Assembly: GCF_030013205.1 (NCBI RefSeq)
Contig: NZ_CP122648.1
Source of the DNA: Escherichia coli
Lineage (GTDB): Bacteria; Pseudomonadota; Gammaproteobacteria; Enterobacterales; Enterobacteriaceae
Length of the DNA: 64,000 nucleotides
Strand: one strand, 5' to 3'
The position numbers were made by a program, and so were the translations under genes. Positions 8,428-30,087 of this stretch are shown piece after piece. Every line of letters starts with the position of its first letter. Positions within the stretch are counted from its first letter, which is position 1. The notes under the pieces were generated by a model. That model saw only the letters and a list, made by a program, of their open reading frames with translations. It was not told where the DNA came from and made no database searches.

Positions 8428-9672
8428 ATGGCAACACTAACCACCACCCAAACGTCACCGTCGCTGCTTGGCGGCGTGGTGATCATCGGCGGTACCATTA
8501 TTGGCGCAGGGATGTTTTCTCTGCCTGTGGTCATGTCCGGGGCGTGGTTCTTCTGGTCAATGGCGGCGCTGATCTTTACCTGGTTCTGTATGCTGCATTC
8601 CGGCTTGATGATTCTGGAAGCTAACCTGAATTATCGAATCGGTTCTAGCTTTGACACCATCACCAAAGATTTGCTGGGCAAAGGCTGGAACGTAGTCAAC
8701 GGCATTTCCATTGCCTTTGTGCTCTATATCCTGACTTACGCCTATATTTCTGCCAGCGGTTCGATTCTGCATCACACCTTCGCGGAGATGTCGCTGAACG
8801 TCCCTGCACGGGCAGCTGGATTTGGTTTTGCACTACTGGTGGCGTTTGTGGTGTGGTTGAGCACCAAAGCGGTCAGCCGGATGACGGCGATTGTGCTGGG
8901 GGCGAAAGTCATTACGTTTTTCCTCACCTTCGGTAGCCTGCTGGGACATGTGCAGCCTGCGACATTGTTCAACGTCGCCGAAAGCAATGCGTCTTATGCA
9001 CCGTATCTGCTGATGACGCTGCCATTCTGTCTGGCATCGTTTGGTTATCACGGTAACGTGCCGAGCCTGATGAAGTATTACGGCAAAGATCCGAAAACCA
9101 TCGTGAAATGCCTGGTGTACGGTACGCTGATGGCGCTGGCGCTGTATACCATCTGGTTGCTGGCGACGATGGGCAACATCCCTCGTCCGGAGTTTATCGG
9201 CATCGCCGAGAAGGGCGGTAATATTGATGTGCTGGTACAGGCATTAAGCGGCGTGCTGAACAGCCGTAGCCTGGACCTTCTGCTGGTCGTGTTCTCAAAC
9301 TTTGCGGTAGCAAGTTCGTTCCTCGGCGTAACGCTGGGTTTGTTTGACTATCTGGCAGATCTGTTTGGTTTTGACGACTCTGCCCTGGGCCGCTTTAAAA
9401 CGGCGTTGCTGACCTTTGCCCCGCCTGTTGTGGGTGGTCTGCTATTTCCGAACGGATTCCTGTATTCCATTGGTTATGCTGGCTTAGCAGCTACTATCTG
9501 GGCAGCAATTGTACCGGCGCTGTTGGCCCGCGCATCGCGTAAACGCTTTGGCAGCCCGAAATTCCGCGTCTGGGGCGGCAAGCCGATGATTGCGCTGATT
9601 CTGGTATTTGGCGTCGGCAACGCACTGGTGCATATTTTATCGAGCTTTAATTTGCTGCCGGTGTATCAGTAA
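8428..9672 (+). CDS. mtr: tryptophan-specific permease Mtr (414 aa)
   Basis: ORF track; HAAAP-family transporter translation. Confidence 0.95.
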
Positions 9673-9680
9673 TCAGCGGT

Positions 9681-11021
<1,341 letters not shown>

Positions 11022-11069
11022 GTAGGACAGCGTTGCCATCTCGGATAAGGCTTCCTACGTTAAAACACA

Positions 11070-12077
11070 CTACCCCAATAATTCTTCCTTCACATCCATC
11101 ACCAGCTCAAACGAATGCAGGCGCGCCTGGTGATCGAAAATCTGCCCGTTAACCATAATCTCATCGGCGTCGGTTTCGCGCAGGATCGACTGCAAGCCGT
11201 GACGCACTTTCGCTTTATCACCCACCAGCGACATACTCAGCGCCTGCTGCACGCCATACTGCTCGGACGGTGACCAGAACTGATCCATATTTTGAATCGG
11301 CGGCGGCAGTTGCCCGGTTTCGCCACGGCGCAGCTTCACAAAGGCTTGCTGCATTGAGGTAAAGAGAAATTCAGCGTCGCGGTTGCTGTCGGCGGCGATA
11401 ATATTGATGCACACCATCGCATACGGTTTTTCCAGCCGTGCCGACGGTTTGAAGTTGCTGCGATAAAGATGCAGCGCCTGGAACAACATATCCGGCGCGA
11501 AGTGTGAGGCAAACGCAAACGGCAGACCAAGCTGCGCCGCCAATTGCGCGCTGTAAAGGCTGGAGCCTAACAACCACACGGGGATTTTCTCGCCATAGCC
11601 TGGTACCGGGCGCACATGCGGATTGGGATCGCGGGCGTCAAACCAGTCCACCAGCTCCGCGACATCGCGGGGAAAATTATCAATATCGCCGCTCATATGA
11701 CGACGTAGAGCCATCATGGTTCGCTGGTCACTACCCGGAGCACGACCCAGCCCCAAATCGATTCGCCCCGGATAGAGCGTATTAAGCGTGCCGAACTGTT
11801 CGGCGATCACCAATGGTGAGTGATTAGGCAACATCACGCCGCCAGACCCCAGATGCAGCGTAGTGGTATTCGCCGCCAGATAGCCAATCAAAACTGATGT
11901 TGCAGCACTGGCAATGCCGGTCATATTGTGGTGTTCCGCCAGCCAGTAGCGATGATAGCCGCGCTTTTCAGCCAGACGGGCGAGGTCGAGAGAGTGGGAG
12001 AACGCTTCTCGCGCTGAAGAACCTTCGGGAATGGGGGCCAGATCGAGTAGCGAAAACGCAATGGTTTTATCAGTCAT
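11070..12077 (-). CDS. yhbW: luciferase-like monooxygenase family protein (335 aa)
   Basis: ORF track translation. Confidence 0.9.
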
Positions 12078-12157
12078 AACAGCTCACTTTGTTACCGATT
12101 AATCTTTAATACTGCATTAAAGAGTAGTTAAAGTTGTTAACAAAGTGAGCTATTTAC

Positions 12158-13036
12158 TTACGCTTGCAGCTCCAGCCCGGCCAGCCGACGCCAGTAGCCG
12201 TTACAATCGCTGTTTGCCGTCAACGGCAGTGGCGCAGCGCCATTTTCATTGGCGCGGAAGGCGTCGAGTATCGCGAAAGTGTCAGTACCCTGCGGTGACA
12301 GGCGGACCACATCAACCAGCCCCTGCATGGATGCCAGCTCGTTACCGAGGTTGTAAACGTAGCCGCTCATGGTCTGAATGCCGTTGAGTACAAACACTTG
12401 TTGGTTTTCCTGCGACAGAACGTTGCGCCCGTTCGGATACTTAATGCAGCAGGTTTCGCACTCATCTTTCGGGCGGTCTTCCGAACGCGCGGTAAAGCAG
12501 CGGGCGGAGTAGGCCAGCGGCAGATGACCGTAGCTCAAGACTTCCACTTCAAACTGGTTGCGAATGCCCAGCTCATCGCACTGATTAAGCAGATTCACCA
12601 GCCAGTCGCGGGATAGCTCCACCGGCATACACCAGCGCATCATGCCCTGTTTGAGCAATATTTTCAGTGTCACCGCGTTGTAGCAGTTCAGCGCGTGCCC
12701 GGCGACGAACGGCAGTTTGCGTTCAGCGCACATATTCACCACGCCGAGATCGCTGGCTTCAATCAGAAACTCACCGTTCTCAACATAGCGTTTCAGTTCG
12801 CCCAGTTCGGAGGATGCCTGCACCAGCGCCAGCGTGGAGAGCACAATCTGCTTACCACTTCCGGCGAGTGATTTTGCCATCTCCAGCCAGTCGCCAACTT
12901 TGGTTGCCCGGCGCTTGCTGCATACCGCTTCACCAAGATAAATCACGTCGGCGCTGCTGGCGGCGGCCTGCTGATAAAATTCTTCCAGCGTCTCTTTTGG
13001 CCAGTACCACAGCACTGGCCCTAAGGAATATTTCAT
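12158..13036 (-). CDS. ubiV: U32-family peptidase-like protein, O2-independent ubiquinone biosynthesis (292 aa)
   Basis: ORF track 12158..13054; likely start at MKYSLGPVLWYW. Confidence 0.85.
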   Translation of the reverse strand: MKYSLGPVLWYWPKETLEEFYQQAAASSADVIYLGEAVCSKRRATKVGDWLEMAKSLAGSGKQIVLSTLALVQASSELGELKRYVENGEFLIEASDLGVVNMCAERKLPFVAGHALNCYNAVTLKILLKQGMMRWCMPVELSRDWLVNLLNQCDELGIRNQFEVEVLSYGHLPLAYSARCFTARSEDRPKDECETCCIKYPNGRNVLSQENQQVFVLNGIQTMSGYVYNLGNELASMQGLVDVVRLSPQGTDTFAILDAFRANENGAAPLPLTANSDCNGYWRRLAGLELQA

Positions 13037-13044
13037 TGCTTTTC

Positions 13045-14040
13045 TCACTGCCATTTACGGTGATACGCGCCAAGGGTGGTCTGCGTGCCTTCGGACATCG
13101 ACCCGAGCGTCTCCATCCACGCGCTTTGCGGTATGAAGTTTTGCGGATCGGCCTTACAACGGTCGATAGCCTGACGCCAGACTTTCGCCACCTGGCTGAC
13201 ATACGCCGGGCTACGCTGGCGGCCTTCAATTTTCACCGAAGCAATATTCGCTGCCATTAACTCCGGCAGCAGTTCCAGGGTATTGAGACTGGTGGGTTCT
13301 TCCAGCGCGTGATAGCGCTCGCCGTCCACCAGATAACGCCCTTTACACAGCGTCGGATAACCTGCGTTTTCGCCATCCTGATAACGGTCGATCAGCACTT
13401 CGTTCAGGCGGGATTCCAGCCCCTGCGGCGTTTGTTGCCAGCGCACGAAACGGGCCGGAGAACACGCACCCACAGTGTTGGGCGACTCACCCGTCAGATA
13501 CGACGACAGATAGCAACGCCCTTCCGACATAATGCACAGGCTGCCGAAAGCAAACACTTCCAGCGGGACAGGTGTGACCCGAGCCAGTTGTTTCACCTGA
13601 TGAATCGACAACACGCGCGGCAGCACCACGCGTGCAACGTCAAAATGGCGATGATAAAAGTTAATCGCCTCTTCATTGGTCGCCGAAGCCTGCACCGATA
13701 CGTGACGTTCAATATGCGGGTAACGCTCGGCGGCGTACTCCAGCATGGCGAGGTCGGCGAGGATCAGCGCGTCGGCACCCAGCTGCGCCGCCATATCCAC
13801 GGCGCGCTGCCAACGGGCGTAACCGTCCGGATGCGCAAAAGTGTTAATCGCGATGTGAAGTTTGCGGCGATGTTGATGGACAAAACTCACCGCTTCCTGC
13901 AATTTTTTCTCGGTAAAGTTAAGGCCGGCGAAGTGACGGGCATTAGTATCATCTTTTAGCCCGATATAAACAGCATCTGCGCCGTTTTCGATGGCCGCCT
14001 TAAGCGCCGGGAGATTTCCGGCAGGGCAGAGCAGCTCCAT
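13045..14040 (-). CDS. ubiU: U32-family protein, O2-independent ubiquinone biosynthesis (331 aa)
   Basis: ORF track 13045..14067; likely start at MELLCPAGNL. Confidence 0.85.
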   Translation of the reverse strand: MELLCPAGNLPALKAAIENGADAVYIGLKDDTNARHFAGLNFTEKKLQEAVSFVHQHRRKLHIAINTFAHPDGYARWQRAVDMAAQLGADALILADLAMLEYAAERYPHIERHVSVQASATNEEAINFYHRHFDVARVVLPRVLSIHQVKQLARVTPVPLEVFAFGSLCIMSEGRCYLSSYLTGESPNTVGACSPARFVRWQQTPQGLESRLNEVLIDRYQDGENAGYPTLCKGRYLVDGERYHALEEPTSLNTLELLPELMAANIASVKIEGRQRSPAYVSQVAKVWRQAIDRCKADPQNFIPQSAWMETLGSMSEGTQTTLGAYHRKWQ

Positions 14041-14248
14041 AATTTTTCCTGAAGGTTGCGCTATCAAAGCGCAAAAATGTTAACGAACTGGGATTTTAGT
14101 TAACCTTGCTGCGACAATTTTTGATTTAAGGCAGTTAAAGTTGTATTGGTGGTAGCAGCAATTTCATATGGAATTGTTGATTTATACCGCTATGTTATTT
14201 TTCTGATATGGCAAAATAGGATGATTGTTGAAACAGGGAGTAAAACTC

Positions 14249-14773
14249 GTGTTGGATAAACTGCGTTCCCGTATTGTGCATTTGGGGCCATCTCTGTTGA
14301 GTGTACCGGTAAAACTGACGCCATTTGCGCTAAAACGCCAGGTTCTTGAGCAGGTCCTAAGCTGGCAATTCCGTCAGGCGCTGAATGATGGCGAGCTGGA
14401 GTTTCTTGAAGGCCGCTGGTTAAGTATTCATGTGCGTGATATTGACCTGCAATGGTTTACCTCGGTGGTGAATGGCAAACTGGTCGTTAGCCAGAACGCG
14501 CAAGCTGATGTGAGTTTTAGTGCCGACGCCAGCGATCTGCTGATGATTGCGGCGCGTAAACAAGATCCGGATACGCTCTTCTTCCAGCGTCGGCTGGTAA
14601 TTGAAGGCGATACGGAGCTGGGGCTGTATGTGAAAAACCTGATGGACGCCATTGAACTGGAGCAAATGCCGAAAGCCTTACGCATGATGCTGCTGCAACT
14701 GGCGGATTTTGTTGAGGCGGGAATGAAAACCGCGCCTGAAACCAAACAGACATCGGTAGGTGAACCATGCTAA
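14249..14773 (+). CDS. ubiT: SCP2-domain lipid-binding protein (174 aa, GTG start)
   Basis: ORF track 14225..14773; GTG at 14249 preceded by gggag SD. Confidence 0.8.
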   Translation: MLDKLRSRIVHLGPSLLSVPVKLTPFALKRQVLEQVLSWQFRQALNDGELEFLEGRWLSIHVRDIDLQWFTSVVNGKLVVSQNAQADVSFSADASDLLMIAARKQDPDTLFFQRRLVIEGDTELGLYVKNLMDAIELEQMPKALRMMLLQLADFVEAGMKTAPETKQTSVGEPC

Positions 14774-15270
14774 TTCGAGTAGAAATTCCCATTGATGCGC
14801 CGGGTATTGATGCCCTGCTGCGTCGTTCATTCGAAAGTGATGCGGAAGCGAAGCTGGTTCACGATCTGCGTGAAGATGGCTTTCTGACGTTGGGGCTGGT
14901 GGCGACAGATGACGAAGGTCAGGTCATTGGCTATGTGGCATTTAGTCCGGTTGATGTGCAGGGCGAAGACCTGCAATGGGTCGGCATGGCACCGTTGGCG
15001 GTTGATGAAAAATACCGTGGACAGGGGCTGGCACGCCAACTGGTCTATGAAGGACTCGATTCGCTTAATGAGTTCGGCTATGCCGCAGTGGTGACGCTGG
15101 GCGATCCGGCGCTGTACAGTCGTTTCGGCTTTGAGCTGGCGGCGCATCACGATCTGCGTTGCCGCTGGCCGGGCACCGAAAGCGCCTTCCAGGTACATCG
15201 TTTAGCGGATGACGCGCTGAACGGCGTAACCGGTCTGGTTGAGTATCACGAGCATTTCAATCGCTTTTAA
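14767..15270 (+). CDS. yhbS: GNAT-family N-acetyltransferase (167 aa)
   Basis: ORF track; overlaps ubiT stop. Confidence 0.9.
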
Positions 15271-15559
15271 TCTCCGGGGTTTGCAGGCTGCTCAACAGCT
15301 CTGCAAACCCTGCGCCTTCCGCTACCAGACGCTCTTTTTGCCGTTTGGTCAGTTGCTTAACGCGATATTCCGCCCGTAGTGCCAGCGAACGATCGCCCAC
15401 TGGCGCGGAAAACGCCAGCGTTAGTTCTCCTTTCCCGCGCAGTGCTTTCGCCCCTTTGCCGCTTTGGTGCTGCTGATAGCGGCGTTCGACATCTGTGGTG
15501 ATCCCGGTATAAAGCTTATTGTCGGCGGTACGGATCAAGTAAAGAAACCAGGGTGTCAT
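15257..15559 (-). CDS. yhbQ: GIY-YIG nuclease superfamily protein (100 aa)
   Basis: ORF track; GIY...YIG motif (LYTGITTD). Confidence 0.9.
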
Positions 15560-15609
15560 CGTCTGCGTCGCATGTTAAGGTCAGGCCCACAGTATAAAAG
15601 AGAACAGCA

Positions 15610-16032
15610 ATGGAAACACTCACCGCCATCAGCCGTTGGCTGGCAAAACAACATGTTGTCACCTGGTGTGTGCAGCAGGAAGGGGAACTCTGGTGCGCTA
15701 ATGCCTTTTATCTTTTTGATGCGCAGAAAGTCGCCTTCTACATTTTGACGGAAGAAAAAACGCGCCACGCGCAGATGAGTGGGCCGCAGGCGGCAGTTGC
15801 CGGAACGGTAAACGGTCAGCCGAAAACGGTAGCGTTAATTCGCGGCGTGCAATTTAAAGGCGAGATCCGCAGGCTTGAAGGTGAGGAAAGCGACCTCGCA
15901 CGTCACGCGTACAATCGTCGCTTTCCGGTTGCCAGAATGCTGTCGGCCCCGGTGTGGGAAATCCGGCTTGATGAAATCAAATTCACCGACAACACGCTGG
16001 GCTTTGGTAAAAAAATGATCTGGCTACGTAAC

Positions 16033-16053
<21 letters not shown>
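15610..16053 (+). CDS. yhbP: pyridoxamine 5'-phosphate oxidase-like protein (147 aa)
   Basis: ORF track. Confidence 0.9.
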
Positions 16054-16563
<510 letters not shown>

Positions 16564-22197: not shown

Positions 22198-23061
22198 ATG
22201 AAACAACACCAATCGGCGGATAATTCTCAGGGCCAGCTTTACATTGTACCGACGCCAATCGGCAATCTGGCGGATATCACCCAGCGTGCGTTGGAGGTAT
22301 TACAGGCCGTTGATCTGATTGCCGCCGAGGATACGCGTCACACCGGTTTATTGCTGCAACATTTTGGGATTAATGCTCGGTTGTTTGCGCTGCACGACCA
22401 TAACGAACAACAAAAAGCCGAAACGCTGCTGGCGAAGCTGCAAGAGGGGCAAAACATTGCGCTGGTTTCCGATGCCGGAACGCCGCTAATTAACGATCCT
22501 GGCTACCATCTGGTGCGTACCTGCCGTGAAGCGGGGATTCGCGTGGTGCCGCTACCCGGGCCGTGTGCTGCTATCACTGCGTTAAGCGCCGCGGGTTTAC
22601 CATCCGATCGTTTTTGTTATGAAGGCTTTTTACCTGCCAAATCAAAAGGCCGCCGTGATGCGCTAAAAGCCATTGAAGCGGAGCCGCGCACGCTGATTTT
22701 TTATGAATCTACCCACCGTCTGTTAGATAGCCTGGAAGATATCGTTGCGGTATTAGGCGAATCCCGCTACGTCGTTCTGGCGCGTGAGCTGACCAAAACC
22801 TGGGAAACCATTCACGGCGCGCCCGTTGGCGAGCTGCTGGCGTGGGTCAAAGAAGATGAAAACCGTCGCAAAGGCGAAATGGTACTGATTGTCGAAGGCC
22901 ATAAAGCACAGGAAGAAGACTTACCCGCCGATGCCCTGCGCACGCTGGCGCTGCTACAGGCAGAACTGCCACTGAAAAAAGCGGCGGCGCTGGCAGCAGA
23001 AATTCACGGCGTGAAGAAAAATGCGCTGTATAAGTATGCACTGGAGCAGCAGGGAGAGTGA
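22198..23061 (+). CDS. rsmI: 16S rRNA C1402 2'-O-methyltransferase (287 aa)
   Basis: ORF track; divergent from lpoA. Confidence 0.92.
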
Positions 23062-23110
23062 TTACAGGCGTCGCAGCAGGAATAGCGCTACAACGCCTTT
23101 ACCTGGCGAG

Positions 23111-23878
23111 TTAACGACGACACATTTCATCAATCACGCATGTGAAATGGTTATGCAGCCATAAAAACGAAGCTGGGATAGCGGTGGAGACTTTAGCCGT
23201 GAGAAAACGTTCTGTCGCATCCTGCTTTCCTTCGCCAGTCACCAGTAACAAAACTTCGCGGGCATTGAGAATATCCTTCAGGCCTAAGGTGATCCCACGA
23301 GTCACGGGACGGCCCGCGGTTTTTAACATCTCATGTTGCTGTGTTCTGGCATCAAGTTGACTGATATGGCAGGCCGGTTGCAGGTTTTCTCCCGGTTCGT
23401 TCAGCCCAAGATGACCGTTTTTCCCCAATCCGAGAACGCATAAATCCAGACCGCCTTTGCGCGCAATCAGGTTCGTTACCCGTTCGCACTCTGTCTCATT
23501 TATCTCTTCGGAGCGAAAGCTGATGAGTTGGTCTTCACGTAGCCCCAGCGGCTGCACGATATGCTGTTGCAGGAAAGTTTCGCAGGTGCCAGGCATCGTT
23601 AATGGCAGATCCACCCATTCGTCGAGCTTCACGAAGGTGAGCTGGCTGACATCAACCTGCTGCTGGTGGATTTTTTCTACCAGATAATGATACGTCAGTA
23701 ATGGCGTGGCTCCGGTCGCCAGGCAAATCACGGCATCCGGTTTGCTACGGATCACGGCCAATAAATATTCGCTGGCACGTTCACTTAACGCCGTATAGTT
23801 TTCAACTTGTTGAAGGGTTTGCACAGGATGAAATTCCTTAAGTAAAGAGGCACCGCCAGACGCGGTGCCTCGTTCCAT
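23111..23878 (-). CDS. agaI: putative galactosamine-6-phosphate deaminase/isomerase (NagB-like)
   Basis: ORF track; NagB/6-phosphogluconolactonase-like fold; last gene of aga cluster. Confidence 0.85.
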   Translation of the reverse strand: MERGTASGGASLLKEFHPVQTLQQVENYTALSERASEYLLAVIRSKPDAVICLATGATPLLTYHYLVEKIHQQQVDVSQLTFVKLDEWVDLPLTMPGTCETFLQQHIVQPLGLREDQLISFRSEEINETECERVTNLIARKGGLDLCVLGLGKNGHLGLNEPGENLQPACHISQLDARTQQHEMLKTAGRPVTRGITLGLKDILNAREVLLLVTGEGKQDATERFLTAKVSTAIPASFLWLHNHFTCVIDEMCRR

Positions 23879-24670
23879 TTACAAAATGCCGAATGCAGAA
23901 CAAACAATAGAAAGAACAAACGTCACGCCGATTAACAGCACCGGATGCGCTTTTTTCACCCGCAGGAAGTAATACATCAGCAGGGTGTAGGCCATCGGTA
24001 AAATATTCGGGAAGACTTTATCGAAGAAATCCTGCTGCAGCGCGACGCTGTGGGTACTGTCGATGGCAAACGATGTCACCACGTTAATATGCACATACGA
24101 AGCGATCAGCCCGCCGATTACCGTGATCCCGAGGATGGTTGCCGAACGAGCAATCATCTGCGAGTTCTCTCGCACTTTATCGATCGCCTTCACGCCGACT
24201 GAATAACCGACGTGGGTCCAGCCGACGCGCAGGAAGAAGATAAGCAGGTAAACGGCGAAAAATAGAATCGGCCCCAGCAAGTTTCCCTGGCTGGCAAATG
24301 ATGAGCAAATTCCCGCCATAATCGGCAATAAGGTAAACCAGAAAATCGCATCGCCAATCCCGGCGATTGGGCCAAACAGTGCCACTTTGAGGCCTTTAAT
24401 GGTGTCGCGGTTTTCTCCTTTTTCTTCCATCGAAATTAATAACCCTATCAGGAATCCGACCAGATTCGGGTGGGTATTAATAAATTCGAGGTTATCTTTC
24501 ATCGCCGCGCTTAGGCCCGGTTTGTCGTCCTTATAAATCTTTTTCAGGCTCGGCAACATCGCCCAGGTAAAACCGCCCGCCTGCATCCTTTCGTAGTTAA
24601 AGCTCGCTTGCAGCAGTGACGAACGAAAGCCCAGACGGGTGATATCTTTTTTACTGATTTCAGATCCCAT
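23879..24670 (-). CDS. agaD: PTS galactosamine-specific EIID component (263 aa)
   Basis: ORF track 23879..24817; likely start MGSEISKKDITR overlapping agaC stop. Confidence 0.88.
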   Translation of the reverse strand: MGSEISKKDITRLGFRSSLLQASFNYERMQAGGFTWAMLPSLKKIYKDDKPGLSAAMKDNLEFINTHPNLVGFLIGLLISMEEKGENRDTIKGLKVALFGPIAGIGDAIFWFTLLPIMAGICSSFASQGNLLGPILFFAVYLLIFFLRVGWTHVGYSVGVKAIDKVRENSQMIARSATILGITVIGGLIASYVHINVVTSFAIDSTHSVALQQDFFDKVFPNILPMAYTLLMYYFLRVKKAHPVLLIGVTFVLSIVCSAFGIL

Positions 24671-25501: not shown

Positions 25502-25978
25502 TTAGTCAGGGATTTGTTCTTTTTGATCGCCAGGGACGTCCTGAATGAAAACATTCACGCCACGTTGTTTAATAAAACGTAAGTCCGTGAGATCCTGGTC
25601 ATCGACATAAACTTTACTGCTGATTTGCTTTTTCCCTTCCGAGAAATGCATATTGCCGACGTTGACATCTTTCAGGTCAATGCCACCTTCTACCAATTTA
25701 CGTACCGTTTGTGGCGTACGGCAAATCAGGAAGATCTTTTGATGCGGTGCAGCTTTGCCGATGACATTAATGGTTTTTTCGATAGTAAAGAAACGAATGC
25801 CAAAGCCGTAGGTTTCCGCGGTAATACCCATTAATTTCTGTTGAATATCATCGTTAGCGACAACATCATCCACGACTACCAGCAGATTTGCACCGATGGT
25901 AGATGTCCAGGTCACGCCAACCTGACCGTGAACCAGACGGTTATCAATACGGGTTAAGAGAATATTTGGACTGCTCAT
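25502..25978 (-). CDS. agaB: PTS galactosamine-specific EIIB component (158 aa)
   Basis: ORF track. Confidence 0.9.
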   Translation of the reverse strand: MSSPNILLTRIDNRLVHGQVGVTWTSTIGANLLVVVDDVVANDDIQQKLMGITAETYGFGIRFFTIEKTINVIGKAAPHQKIFLICRTPQTVRKLVEGGIDLKDVNVGNMHFSEGKKQISSKVYVDDQDLTDLRFIKQRGVNVFIQDVPGDQKEQIPD

Positions 25979-26144
25979 TGTGTAATCCTCACCATAAAGT
26001 TGAATAATATAATTTTTTTAAATATATTATTGTTGCGATATTGTACTGATGTATTTATTAAGGTTTAGTTATCTCCTTTACCATTAAGGCACTCCCCGAT
26101 ATTAATCGGGAAGTACATTGGGATAAATCATAAAAAACTAATGA

Positions 26145-27017
<873 letters not shown>

Positions 27018-28522: not shown

Positions 28523-29656
28523 TCAAAACGAAGCTAATTGACCCTGAATCCAGATTTGTTGCACATGTAGCCCGCTATCCAGCGCAACGACGCTGGCGCG
28601 TTTGCCCGGTTTAAGCGATCCCAGAACACCATCAACACCCAGCATTCGCGCCGGATGCAGCGACGCCATATGGATGGCTTCCGCAGGCGTTACGCCCGTT
28701 AACTCGACCATGTTGCGCACTGCTGCATCGACAGATAGCGTACTGCCCGCCAGCCCACCGGACGCGGTACGGACAACGCCACCGTGCATCTGCACTTCTT
28801 CGCCACATAACGTATAGCGACCATCCGGCATCCCAGCTGCCTGCATCGCGTCGGTGATCAGTACGATTCTCTCTTTCGCACAGCAACAACACAGCGACAT
28901 CGCCGCCGGATGCACATGATGACCATCGGCTATCAGTTCCAGCCAGGCGCGCTTGTCCGTTAATCCCGCGCCAACCATTCCCGGTTCGCGGTGATGTAAA
29001 CCTGTCATCCCGTTATAGCAATGCACCAGGCCGTCGGCACCAGCATCAAATGCGGCGCGGGTTTGTTGCCAGGTCGCCGCGCTATGCCCCAGCATCACCC
29101 TTACGTTTTGCTGTTTAAGATGGCGGATGGCCTGCAATGCCCCTTCTTTTTCCGGTGCCAGCGCTACCACGCGTAAGGTGTGCTGAGAAACGGCAATCAA
29201 TTGATCCAGCTCGGCAATTTCCAGCTCGCGAAACAGCTCCGGTGGATGCGCGCCTTTATTCTGCGGCGTGAAGTACGGTCCTTCGAGATAACTCCCCAGC
29301 ACTTGCGCACCAGGTCCGCCGCGTTGGCAACGTTGAGCAATACGTTTCAGCGCCGCATGAATGGTATTAAGCGGCGCGGTTACGGTGGTCGGTAACCAAC
29401 TGCCGACACCTTCGCATGCCTTGTGCATTGCCAGCTTGTCGAGTACATCCGGCGCGTCATCCATTACATCAACGCCCGCACCACCGTGTACATGGGTGTC
29501 GATGTAAGCGGGGCAGAGCAGTTCCGCATCGCGTTCAGTCACGCCCACTGGAATCGGTTCGATTGCTGCGATGACACCGTCAGCAATACGCAACTGATGG
29601 TCATCGAGCCATCCCTCTTCAGTTAGCAGCCTTCTGGCGCGCAGAACGGGTGTCAT
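28523..29656 (-). CDS. agaA: N-acetylgalactosamine-6-phosphate deacetylase, full length (about 377 aa)
   Basis: ORF track 28523..29677; NagA-like. Confidence 0.88.
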   Translation of the reverse strand: MTPVLRARRLLTEEGWLDDHQLRIADGVIAAIEPIPVGVTERDAELLCPAYIDTHVHGGAGVDVMDDAPDVLDKLAMHKACEGVGSWLPTTVTAPLNTIHAALKRIAQRCQRGGPGAQVLGSYLEGPYFTPQNKGAHPPELFRELEIAELDQLIAVSQHTLRVVALAPEKEGALQAIRHLKQQNVRVMLGHSAATWQQTRAAFDAGADGLVHCYNGMTGLHHREPGMVGAGLTDKRAWLELIADGHHVHPAAMSLCCCCAKERIVLITDAMQAAGMPDGRYTLCGEEVQMHGGVVRTASGGLAGSTLSVDAAVRNMVELTGVTPAEAIHMASLHPARMLGVDGVLGSLKPGKRASVVALDSGLHVQQIWIQGQLASF

Positions 29657-30087
29657 ATTCCTTCCTCGACCGGACATTCTTCATGGCAGCGGCCTAACTC
29701 GTCCACCAGACTGGTCAGCCCACGGTGTCCACACTCCAGCGCCTGCACACGGAATTCTTCACCGATTAACCCTTCGCGCTCCAGCACCATCTCCAGTAGC
29801 AGTTGTAAATTGGTGCCTGTAATCACTTCACAGCCCGGTTTTTGCATCGCCAGCGTTGAAGCTACGCGAAACGGCGTGCCGCCCAGCAAATCCGTCAGAA
29901 AAACAATGCCGTCTTCACAATCCAGTTGGGCGATGGCCTCTTCAAGCTGCGATGTAAGCAGCGCGGTGCTTGAGGTTTCCGGAAAATCGATGGCGATAAA
30001 CTGCGATTGCTCGCCGAGGATTTGCTTCATTGCTTTTTCCATGCCACTGGCAAACCCGCCATGCCCTGTCAAAATAATACTTAACAT
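29653..30087 (-). CDS. agaF: PTS N-acetylgalactosamine-specific EIIA component (144 aa)
   Basis: ORF track. Confidence 0.88.
   Translation of the reverse strand: MLSIILTGHGGFASGMEKAMKQILGEQSQFIAIDFPETSSTALLTSQLEEAIAQLDCEDGIVFLTDLLGGTPFRVASTLAMQKPGCEVITGTNLQLLLEMVLEREGLIGEEFRVQALECGHRGLTSLVDELGRCHEECPVEEGI

Follow-up and report, generated by a model that had tools for sequence, protein, structure and literature searches.

The paper on the E. coli W genome (PMC3032704) lists the fimbrial operon yraHIJK among the chaperone-usher operons of type gamma1. In K-12, in O157:H7 and in most of the 3,523 yra-positive genomes counted here, it lies between rsmI and agaI. According to Gonzalez-Alba et al. 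2019 (PMC6896753), the E. coli lineage at the root of phylogroups E, B1 and A acquired yra. Among urinary isolates, yra belongs to the genes expressed solely in phylogroups A and B1 and is restricted to non-B2 isolates (PMC4128348). Wurpel et al. 2013 (PMC3559732) described clade-specific alternative operons at fixed loci, related to each other and mutually exclusive, for example Auf/Ycb and Yqi/Yqi-like, and in the passages drawn on here they explain such pairs by ancestral acquisition followed by vertical descent, loss or homologous recombination.

Here, we analyze the same site in a stretch of 64,000 nucleotides of E. coli DNA (contig NZ_CP122648.1), referred to as the window. It has none of the four K-12 genes and carries instead a 99-bp junction that is very probably ancestral. 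The presence or absence of yra among E. coli lineages, read as a gain, has already been published and is in itself an ordinary finding. What is added here is the exact breakpoints, an empty junction orthologous to that of E. albertii and the derived 3' ends of K-12 rsmI and agaI, together with a rare second operon type in E. coli and a third cassette at the site.

Results

The rsmI-agaI junction

The genes around the junction in the window are lpoA (minus strand), rsmI (plus) and agaI (minus), followed by agaD, agaC, agaB, kbaY, agaS and a full-length deacetylase gene. The two genes that border the junction were identified by NCBIfam equivalog profiles, rsmI with 629 bits to PRK14994 (cutoff 502) and agaI with 472 bits to PRK09762 (cutoff 271). 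The features are:

22198-23061, plus strand: rsmI, 16S rRNA C1402 2'-O-methyltransferase, 287 aa (ORF list, PRK14994)
23055-23153, no strand: allele-specific 99-bp segment (ungapped comparison with K-12)
23062-23110, no strand: spacer between the convergent rsmI and agaI stop codons, exactly 49 bp (sequence)
23063-23101, no strand: spacer hairpin, arms 23063-23078 and 23086-23101, loop 23079-23085
23111-23878, minus strand: agaI, galactosamine-6-phosphate isomerase, 255 aa (ORF list, PRK09762)

The 99-bp segment extends from the last rsmI codons and their stop across the spacer into agaI, of which it includes the last 14 codons and stop. RsmI of the window ends in YALEQQGE and its AgaI in WLHNHFTCVIDEMCRR, as seen in a comparison of C-termini over eight taxa. 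Neither the usher YraJ, the chaperone YraI nor the subunits YraH and YraK are encoded between the two genes, and tblastn searches of the whole 64-kb window with K-12 YraH, YraI, YraJ and YraK gave no match at E<=1e-5.

Comparison with K-12

The annotated order in K-12 BW25113 is lpoA - rsmI - yraK - yraJ - yraI - yraH - agaI - agaD. An anchored, ungapped comparison showed that homology between the window and K-12 stops at 23054 and restarts at 23154, so that 99 bp in the window are exchanged for 5,484 bp in K-12, consisting of yraKJIH and an AT-rich region between yraH and agaI. The difference is a replacement and not a pure insertion or deletion at one point. The two alleles differ in the ends of both neighboring proteins: RsmI ends in QQGE in the window versus QQG in K-12, which is shorter by one residue, and AgaI ends in NHFTCVIDEMCRR in the window versus SNFICLINT in K-12 (longer form WLHSNFICLINT).

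An earlier note on this DNA, made from the sequence alone, had described rsmI and agaI as convergent with stop codons 49 bp apart, had placed a yraHIJK operon of about 5.5 kb at this position in K-12, and had named a different K-12 gene order as what would overturn it. The window coordinates and the BW25113 annotation agree with the first two statements, the length of the K-12-specific segment matches the stated size, and the K-12 order is as stated. The note had also called the absence of the operon clean; yraHIJK is indeed missing, but the word clean has to be qualified, since the replacement of 99 bp versus 5,484 bp reaches into the last codons of both genes.

The K-12 segment has a G+C content of 45%, compared to 50-54% in the flanks. 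In the flanks, the window and K-12 stay 94-98% identical as far as both edges, and this comparison showed no gradient of divergence toward the junction, which would be a sign of an imported tract. The flanking dS of 0.04-0.11 is ordinary between two E. coli lineages. Elsewhere in the aga region, positions 28523-29677 of the window contain a full-length N-acetylgalactosamine-6-phosphate deacetylase gene, a 384-aa ORF, and the K-12 counterpart consists of truncated agaW and agaA pseudogenes.

The ancestral state

An outgroup scan with AgaI as the query and one genome per species yielded six loci, with E. fergusonii, E. marmotae and E. ruysiae contributing none. At four of the six loci, agaI lies next to rsmI and fimbrial genes are lacking: E. 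albertii, Escherichia sp. E1V33, 'E. coli' E69 (which stood in the scan for a species of its own) and Trabulsiella odontotermitis. The spacer is 49 bp long in the first three and 102 bp in T. odontotermitis. In E. albertii, E1V33 and E69, AgaI ends in HFTC(V/L)(I/T)DEMCRR and RsmI in QQGE, an RsmI end common to all empty-site Escherichia examined. The 99-bp segment of the window matches seven other E. coli empty alleles at 91-99 of 99 positions, and outside these it matches E1V33 at 94/99, E. albertii at 89/99 and E69 at 85/99.

A protein search found that YALEQQGE, as the end of a 287-aa protein, is the commonest end among the closest RsmI homologues, including those of Siccibacter and Jejubacter. 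Because QQGE is commonest among homologues from other genera, the K-12 end QQG is derived. Trabulsiella RsmI ends in QQG, as in K-12, which could be taken to speak against the ancestral reading. We rejected this objection; QQGE is common in other genera, and the match between Trabulsiella and K-12 is taken as convergence. Judged from these comparisons, K-12 is the derived form at the site, down to the last rsmI and agaI codons.

The junction in the window has two properties expected of an unoccupied allele. It is orthologous to junctions without an insert in E. albertii, E1V33 and E69, with agaI and rsmI adjacent in Trabulsiella as well, and it carries neither insert remnants nor a deletion scar, as no yra protein match was found. 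In an ungapped comparison, the 99 bp showed no alignment with the island sequence that takes their place in K-12. We conclude with considerable confidence that the window has the ancestral, never-occupied rsmI-agaI allele and that yraHIJK was inserted in another lineage. We infer the direction of change to be gain rather than loss.

The earlier note had left two alternatives, the ancestral state before acquisition and a precise deletion, and had proposed a search for fimbrial fragments or repeats at the junction. Under the second alternative, a yraHIJK arranged as in K-12 was cut out and the two flanking genes came to lie 49 bp apart. Deletions are known at this site, including an IS1-bounded deletion in EC25 and partial operons in other genomes. 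However, the 99 bp of the window are missing from the K-12-type allele and are orthologous to E. albertii; the window contains no yra fragments, and the island ends have no repeats to mediate exact excision, with only short repeats at chance level around the window junction. The window allele is considered un-inserted because deletion from a K-12-type allele could not recreate the 99 bp that E. albertii has. Excision is very improbable, and it is the ancestral state, with its orthology to E. albertii and two other Escherichia junctions, that the evidence bears out.

Configurations in complete genomes

The census covered 5,426 complete E. coli genomes, for which lineage distribution was taken from the literature and a few named strains. 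The configurations found are:

1,835/5,426 genomes: contiguous empty junction
3,523/5,426 genomes: K-12-type yra DNA, of which 3,264 have at least 80% of the K-12-type yra DNA
2/5,426 genomes: type-2 (very divergent) yra-like operon
about 31 genomes: probable third arrangement with an unrelated cassette (one read, about 30 by a 316-bp match)

The site is empty in about 34% and occupied in about 65% of these genomes. The third arrangement was read in 2020CK-00188 (locus L003, 9772-15788), in which the order is rsmI, an MBL-fold hydrolase, a LysR regulator, a PTS IIB pseudogene, a MalY/PatB-like gene, a MalX-like gene and kbaY, and in which both agaBCDI and yra are missing. About 30 more genomes, including O145:H28, have a 316-bp match under the same annotated features as the 2020CK-00188 cassette.

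The operon is not always intact. O157:H7 F8492 has a yraK split by an IS remnant (locus L019, 20702-21626) and an agaI pseudogene with an internal stop (25942-26697). In EC25 (locus L011, 5058-6137), IS1 bounds a deletion that runs from inside mtr to yraH, just upstream of agaI, and takes with it about 20 core genes, including rsmI and lpoA, in addition to yra. Further partial yra operons are present in other complete E. coli genomes. With at least four configurations in addition to IS-disrupted and partly deleted versions, the site deserves the earlier description of a strain-variable hotspot.

These counts also bear on the possibility that the missing operon is an assembly or annotation artefact, the operon being present in the organism and collapsed out of the sequence. 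Nothing in favor of this was found, and the same contiguous junction occurs in the 1,835 complete genomes with an empty site, several of which are 100% identical to the window over 25 kb. We give the artefact almost no credence and regard the empty junction as real.

Relatives of the window lineage

Several swine isolates match the first 25 kb of the window at 100% identity, and two O139:H1 genomes are near-identical to it over the same stretch. One otherwise near-identical genome, CFSAN018748, carries an inserted ISEc31 in these 25 kb, and its agaD (locus L002, 4480-5272) is annotated as two overlapping CDS due to a 1-nt indel; agaD of the window (23879-24670) is intact, encoding 263 aa with 3 differences from K-12.

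In flanks of 20 kb (left of the junction) and 14 kb (right), the window is 97.35/97.78% identical to O157:H7, 97.79/97.26% to F11 and 97.56/97.91% to K-12. F11, which we take to be a phylogroup B2 strain, has an empty junction. Over the same flanks, O157:H7 and K-12 are 98.5-98.7% identical to each other. The window is about equidistant from O157:H7, K-12 and F11 while O157:H7 and K-12 are closer to each other, and therefore the window lineage locally branches outside the yra-bearing group. This agrees with simple retention of the ancestral allele.

Counting against simple retention, O139:H1-ST1 has been assigned to phylogroup E by PCR (PMC6230658), and yra would be expected in phylogroup E. 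One alternative is allele replacement, in which the window lineage once had yra and regained an empty allele by homologous recombination with DNA of an empty-site strain, such that the sequence is ancestral without having been inherited vertically. In addition to the phylogroup E typing, this is favored by the closest non-clonal relatives over 25 kb, which include MEW (98.6%), a strain with a type-2 operon at the site, and by A_5 and AF22, two strains with an identical 99-bp segment in surroundings of 1.4 kb that are 98.9% and 97.9% identical to the window, respectively. However, no unusually close tract was found near the junction in the flanks over which the window is equidistant from the three reference strains, and identity to K-12 stays even as far as the breakpoints. 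As for the typing, phylogroup E as defined by PCR is a heterogeneous group. We consider allele replacement unlikely and prefer vertical retention of the empty allele.

Occupied alleles and their age

E. whittamii has yraHIJK at the same site, with proteins 83-90% identical to those of K-12, and Escherichia sp. MOD1-EC7003 has a far more divergent yra-like operon there, 53-65% identical to K-12. This divergent type, referred to as type 2, is also present in E. coli 18KM2445 and MEW, where it is 67-86% identical to EC7003 and 45-65% to K-12. Between type 2 and type 1 yra, protein identity is 45-65% and synonymous divergence is saturated. The type-2 operon occupies 11137-16149 of locus L008 in MOD1-EC7003 and 8675-13689 of locus L010 in 18KM2445. 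The 1 kb between the type-2 operon and agaI in 18KM2445 (L010, 13690-14736) holds an agaB-like fragment, 91% identical to window 25922-25968, and has a further resemblance, to the PTS IIB/MalY region of the third arrangement; these resemblances suggest past rearrangements between these alleles.

Occupied alleles have a common AgaI tail, WLH-x-N-F-(I/T)-C-L-(I/F)-(D/N/E), with free divergence beyond it. Since their AgaI tails diverge past that residue, the structural breakpoint on the agaI side would lie at about 23128/23129. The eight codons at 23129-23152 are homologous between the window and K-12, with about 50% nucleotide identity versus about 97% in the adjacent flank.

Between K-12 and E. 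whittamii, dS of the yra genes is 0.67-0.88, compared to 0.2-0.55 for the flanks. Given this yra dS and the presence of yra or yra-like operons in E. whittamii and EC7003, the occupied allele must be old, and may even predate E. coli. Instead of a single simple gain on one branch, there may have been a long coexistence of empty and occupied alleles.

The K-12 segment holds only yraKJIH and has none of the marks of a mobile island that we looked for (integrase, transposase, tRNA target and flanking repeats). The longest words shared between the ends of the K-12 insert were 7 nt as direct and 8 nt as inverted repeats, and words at least as long turned up in 359 and 138 of 500 shuffles, respectively. 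Separately, E1V33 compared with K-12 (locus L004) is a mosaic, with an E. coli-like dS of 0.06-0.10 on the aga side and a dS of 0.33-0.36 in rsmI and lpoA, a pattern suggestive of a recombination boundary that coincides with the junction or lies close to it.

The spacer hairpin

The 49-bp spacer contains a hairpin of 16 pairs that, in an alignment fold, is conserved in all empty alleles; E69 has one compensatory change from G:C to A:U, and most empty alleles have a G.U pair when read in the agaI sense. Single-sequence folds of the window gave -22.2 kcal/mol (z -2.7) for the minus strand and z -0.1 for the plus strand, while E1V33, E69 and E. albertii have strong hairpins on both strands (-27 to -30 kcal/mol, z -3.7 to -7.1). 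Owing to three substitutions in one arm, the window hairpin pairs well only in agaI-sense RNA, and the rsmI-sense fold is no better than that of shuffled sequence.

A search of Rfam with 22800-23400 at E<=1 returned no family, and a scan of 22600-23600 for consensus promoters and terminators found 0 promoters and 0 terminator-like sites. An intrinsic (Rho-independent) terminator was rejected; a stem is present but no T run follows it on either strand. With regard to REP/BIME elements, the hairpin is present as a single copy within the 64-kb window with up to 3 mismatches allowed, and the Trabulsiella spacer looks REP-like by eye. As a guess, the hairpin could act as a 3'-end stabilizer of agaI mRNA.

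K-12 and E. whittamii both have a hairpin core, GCGTTGC...GCAACG, downstream of rsmI, at nearly the same distance from the stop codon as the hairpin of the empty allele. This could be a target-site hairpin that was retained. The core is the one element that the window junction might have in common with the K-12 island and, if homologous, would be part of the target site and not a remnant. The word GCAGCAGG occurs at the rsmI end and in the hairpin, and explains nothing.

Discussion

The polymorphism described here is the same presence or absence of yra, with the same direction, gain, as that reported by Gonzalez-Alba et al. 2019; the passages of that paper drawn on here mention no junction sequence, outgroup junctions, second divergent operon type or third cassette. 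With phylogroups taken from the literature, our counts and local distances agree with the published gain in the E/B1/A lineage, and yra in E. whittamii and EC7003 indicates an older and more complicated history. The type-1 and type-2 yra operons at rsmI-agaI behave like the same-locus operon pairs of Wurpel et al. Differences are that the passages of that paper used here do not discuss Yra and that type 2 is very rare in our sample (2/5,426).

We propose that a gamma1-type chaperone-usher operon, yraHIJK, was inserted between rsmI and agaI in another Escherichia lineage. The insertion would have removed about 75-99 bp, made up of the last codon of rsmI with its stop, the greater part of the spacer and approximately five codons at the end of agaI. 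The occupied allele would then have become the norm in the E. coli lineage of phylogroups E, B1 and A, to which K-12 and O157:H7 belong. Elsewhere, the empty allele would have been kept: in F11, in phylogroups outside E/B1/A, according to the literature, and in the deep-branching, swine O139:H1-like lineage of the window. The old insertion probably passes between lineages with a few tightly linked flanking bases, via homologous recombination in agaI and rsmI. We infer spread by homologous recombination because the island ends have no mobile-element signature and because the eight agaI codons have about 50% identity compared to about 97% in the flank.

A broader interpretation is possible, though we hold the balance of probability to be against it: rsmI-agaI could be an old, trans-species, multi-allelic locus. 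Its alleles, of which at least three are known and deeply diverged (the empty one and the two yra types), would persist across Escherichia species, exchanged between lineages by homologous recombination within the flanking genes and possibly maintained by balancing or niche-specific selection acting on fimbriae. The window lineage would then carry the oldest of these alleles.

Beyond bookkeeping, the finding counts for little. If our preferred reading is correct, this swine-associated lineage has not lost Yra fimbriae; being without them is the original state. The junction provides a simple typing marker, as it contains either the 99-bp ancestral segment or a 5.5-kb insert. The rare second operon and the third cassette mark the site as a recurrent exchange point, which is of modest value for understanding the evolution of the E. 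coli fimbrial repertoire.
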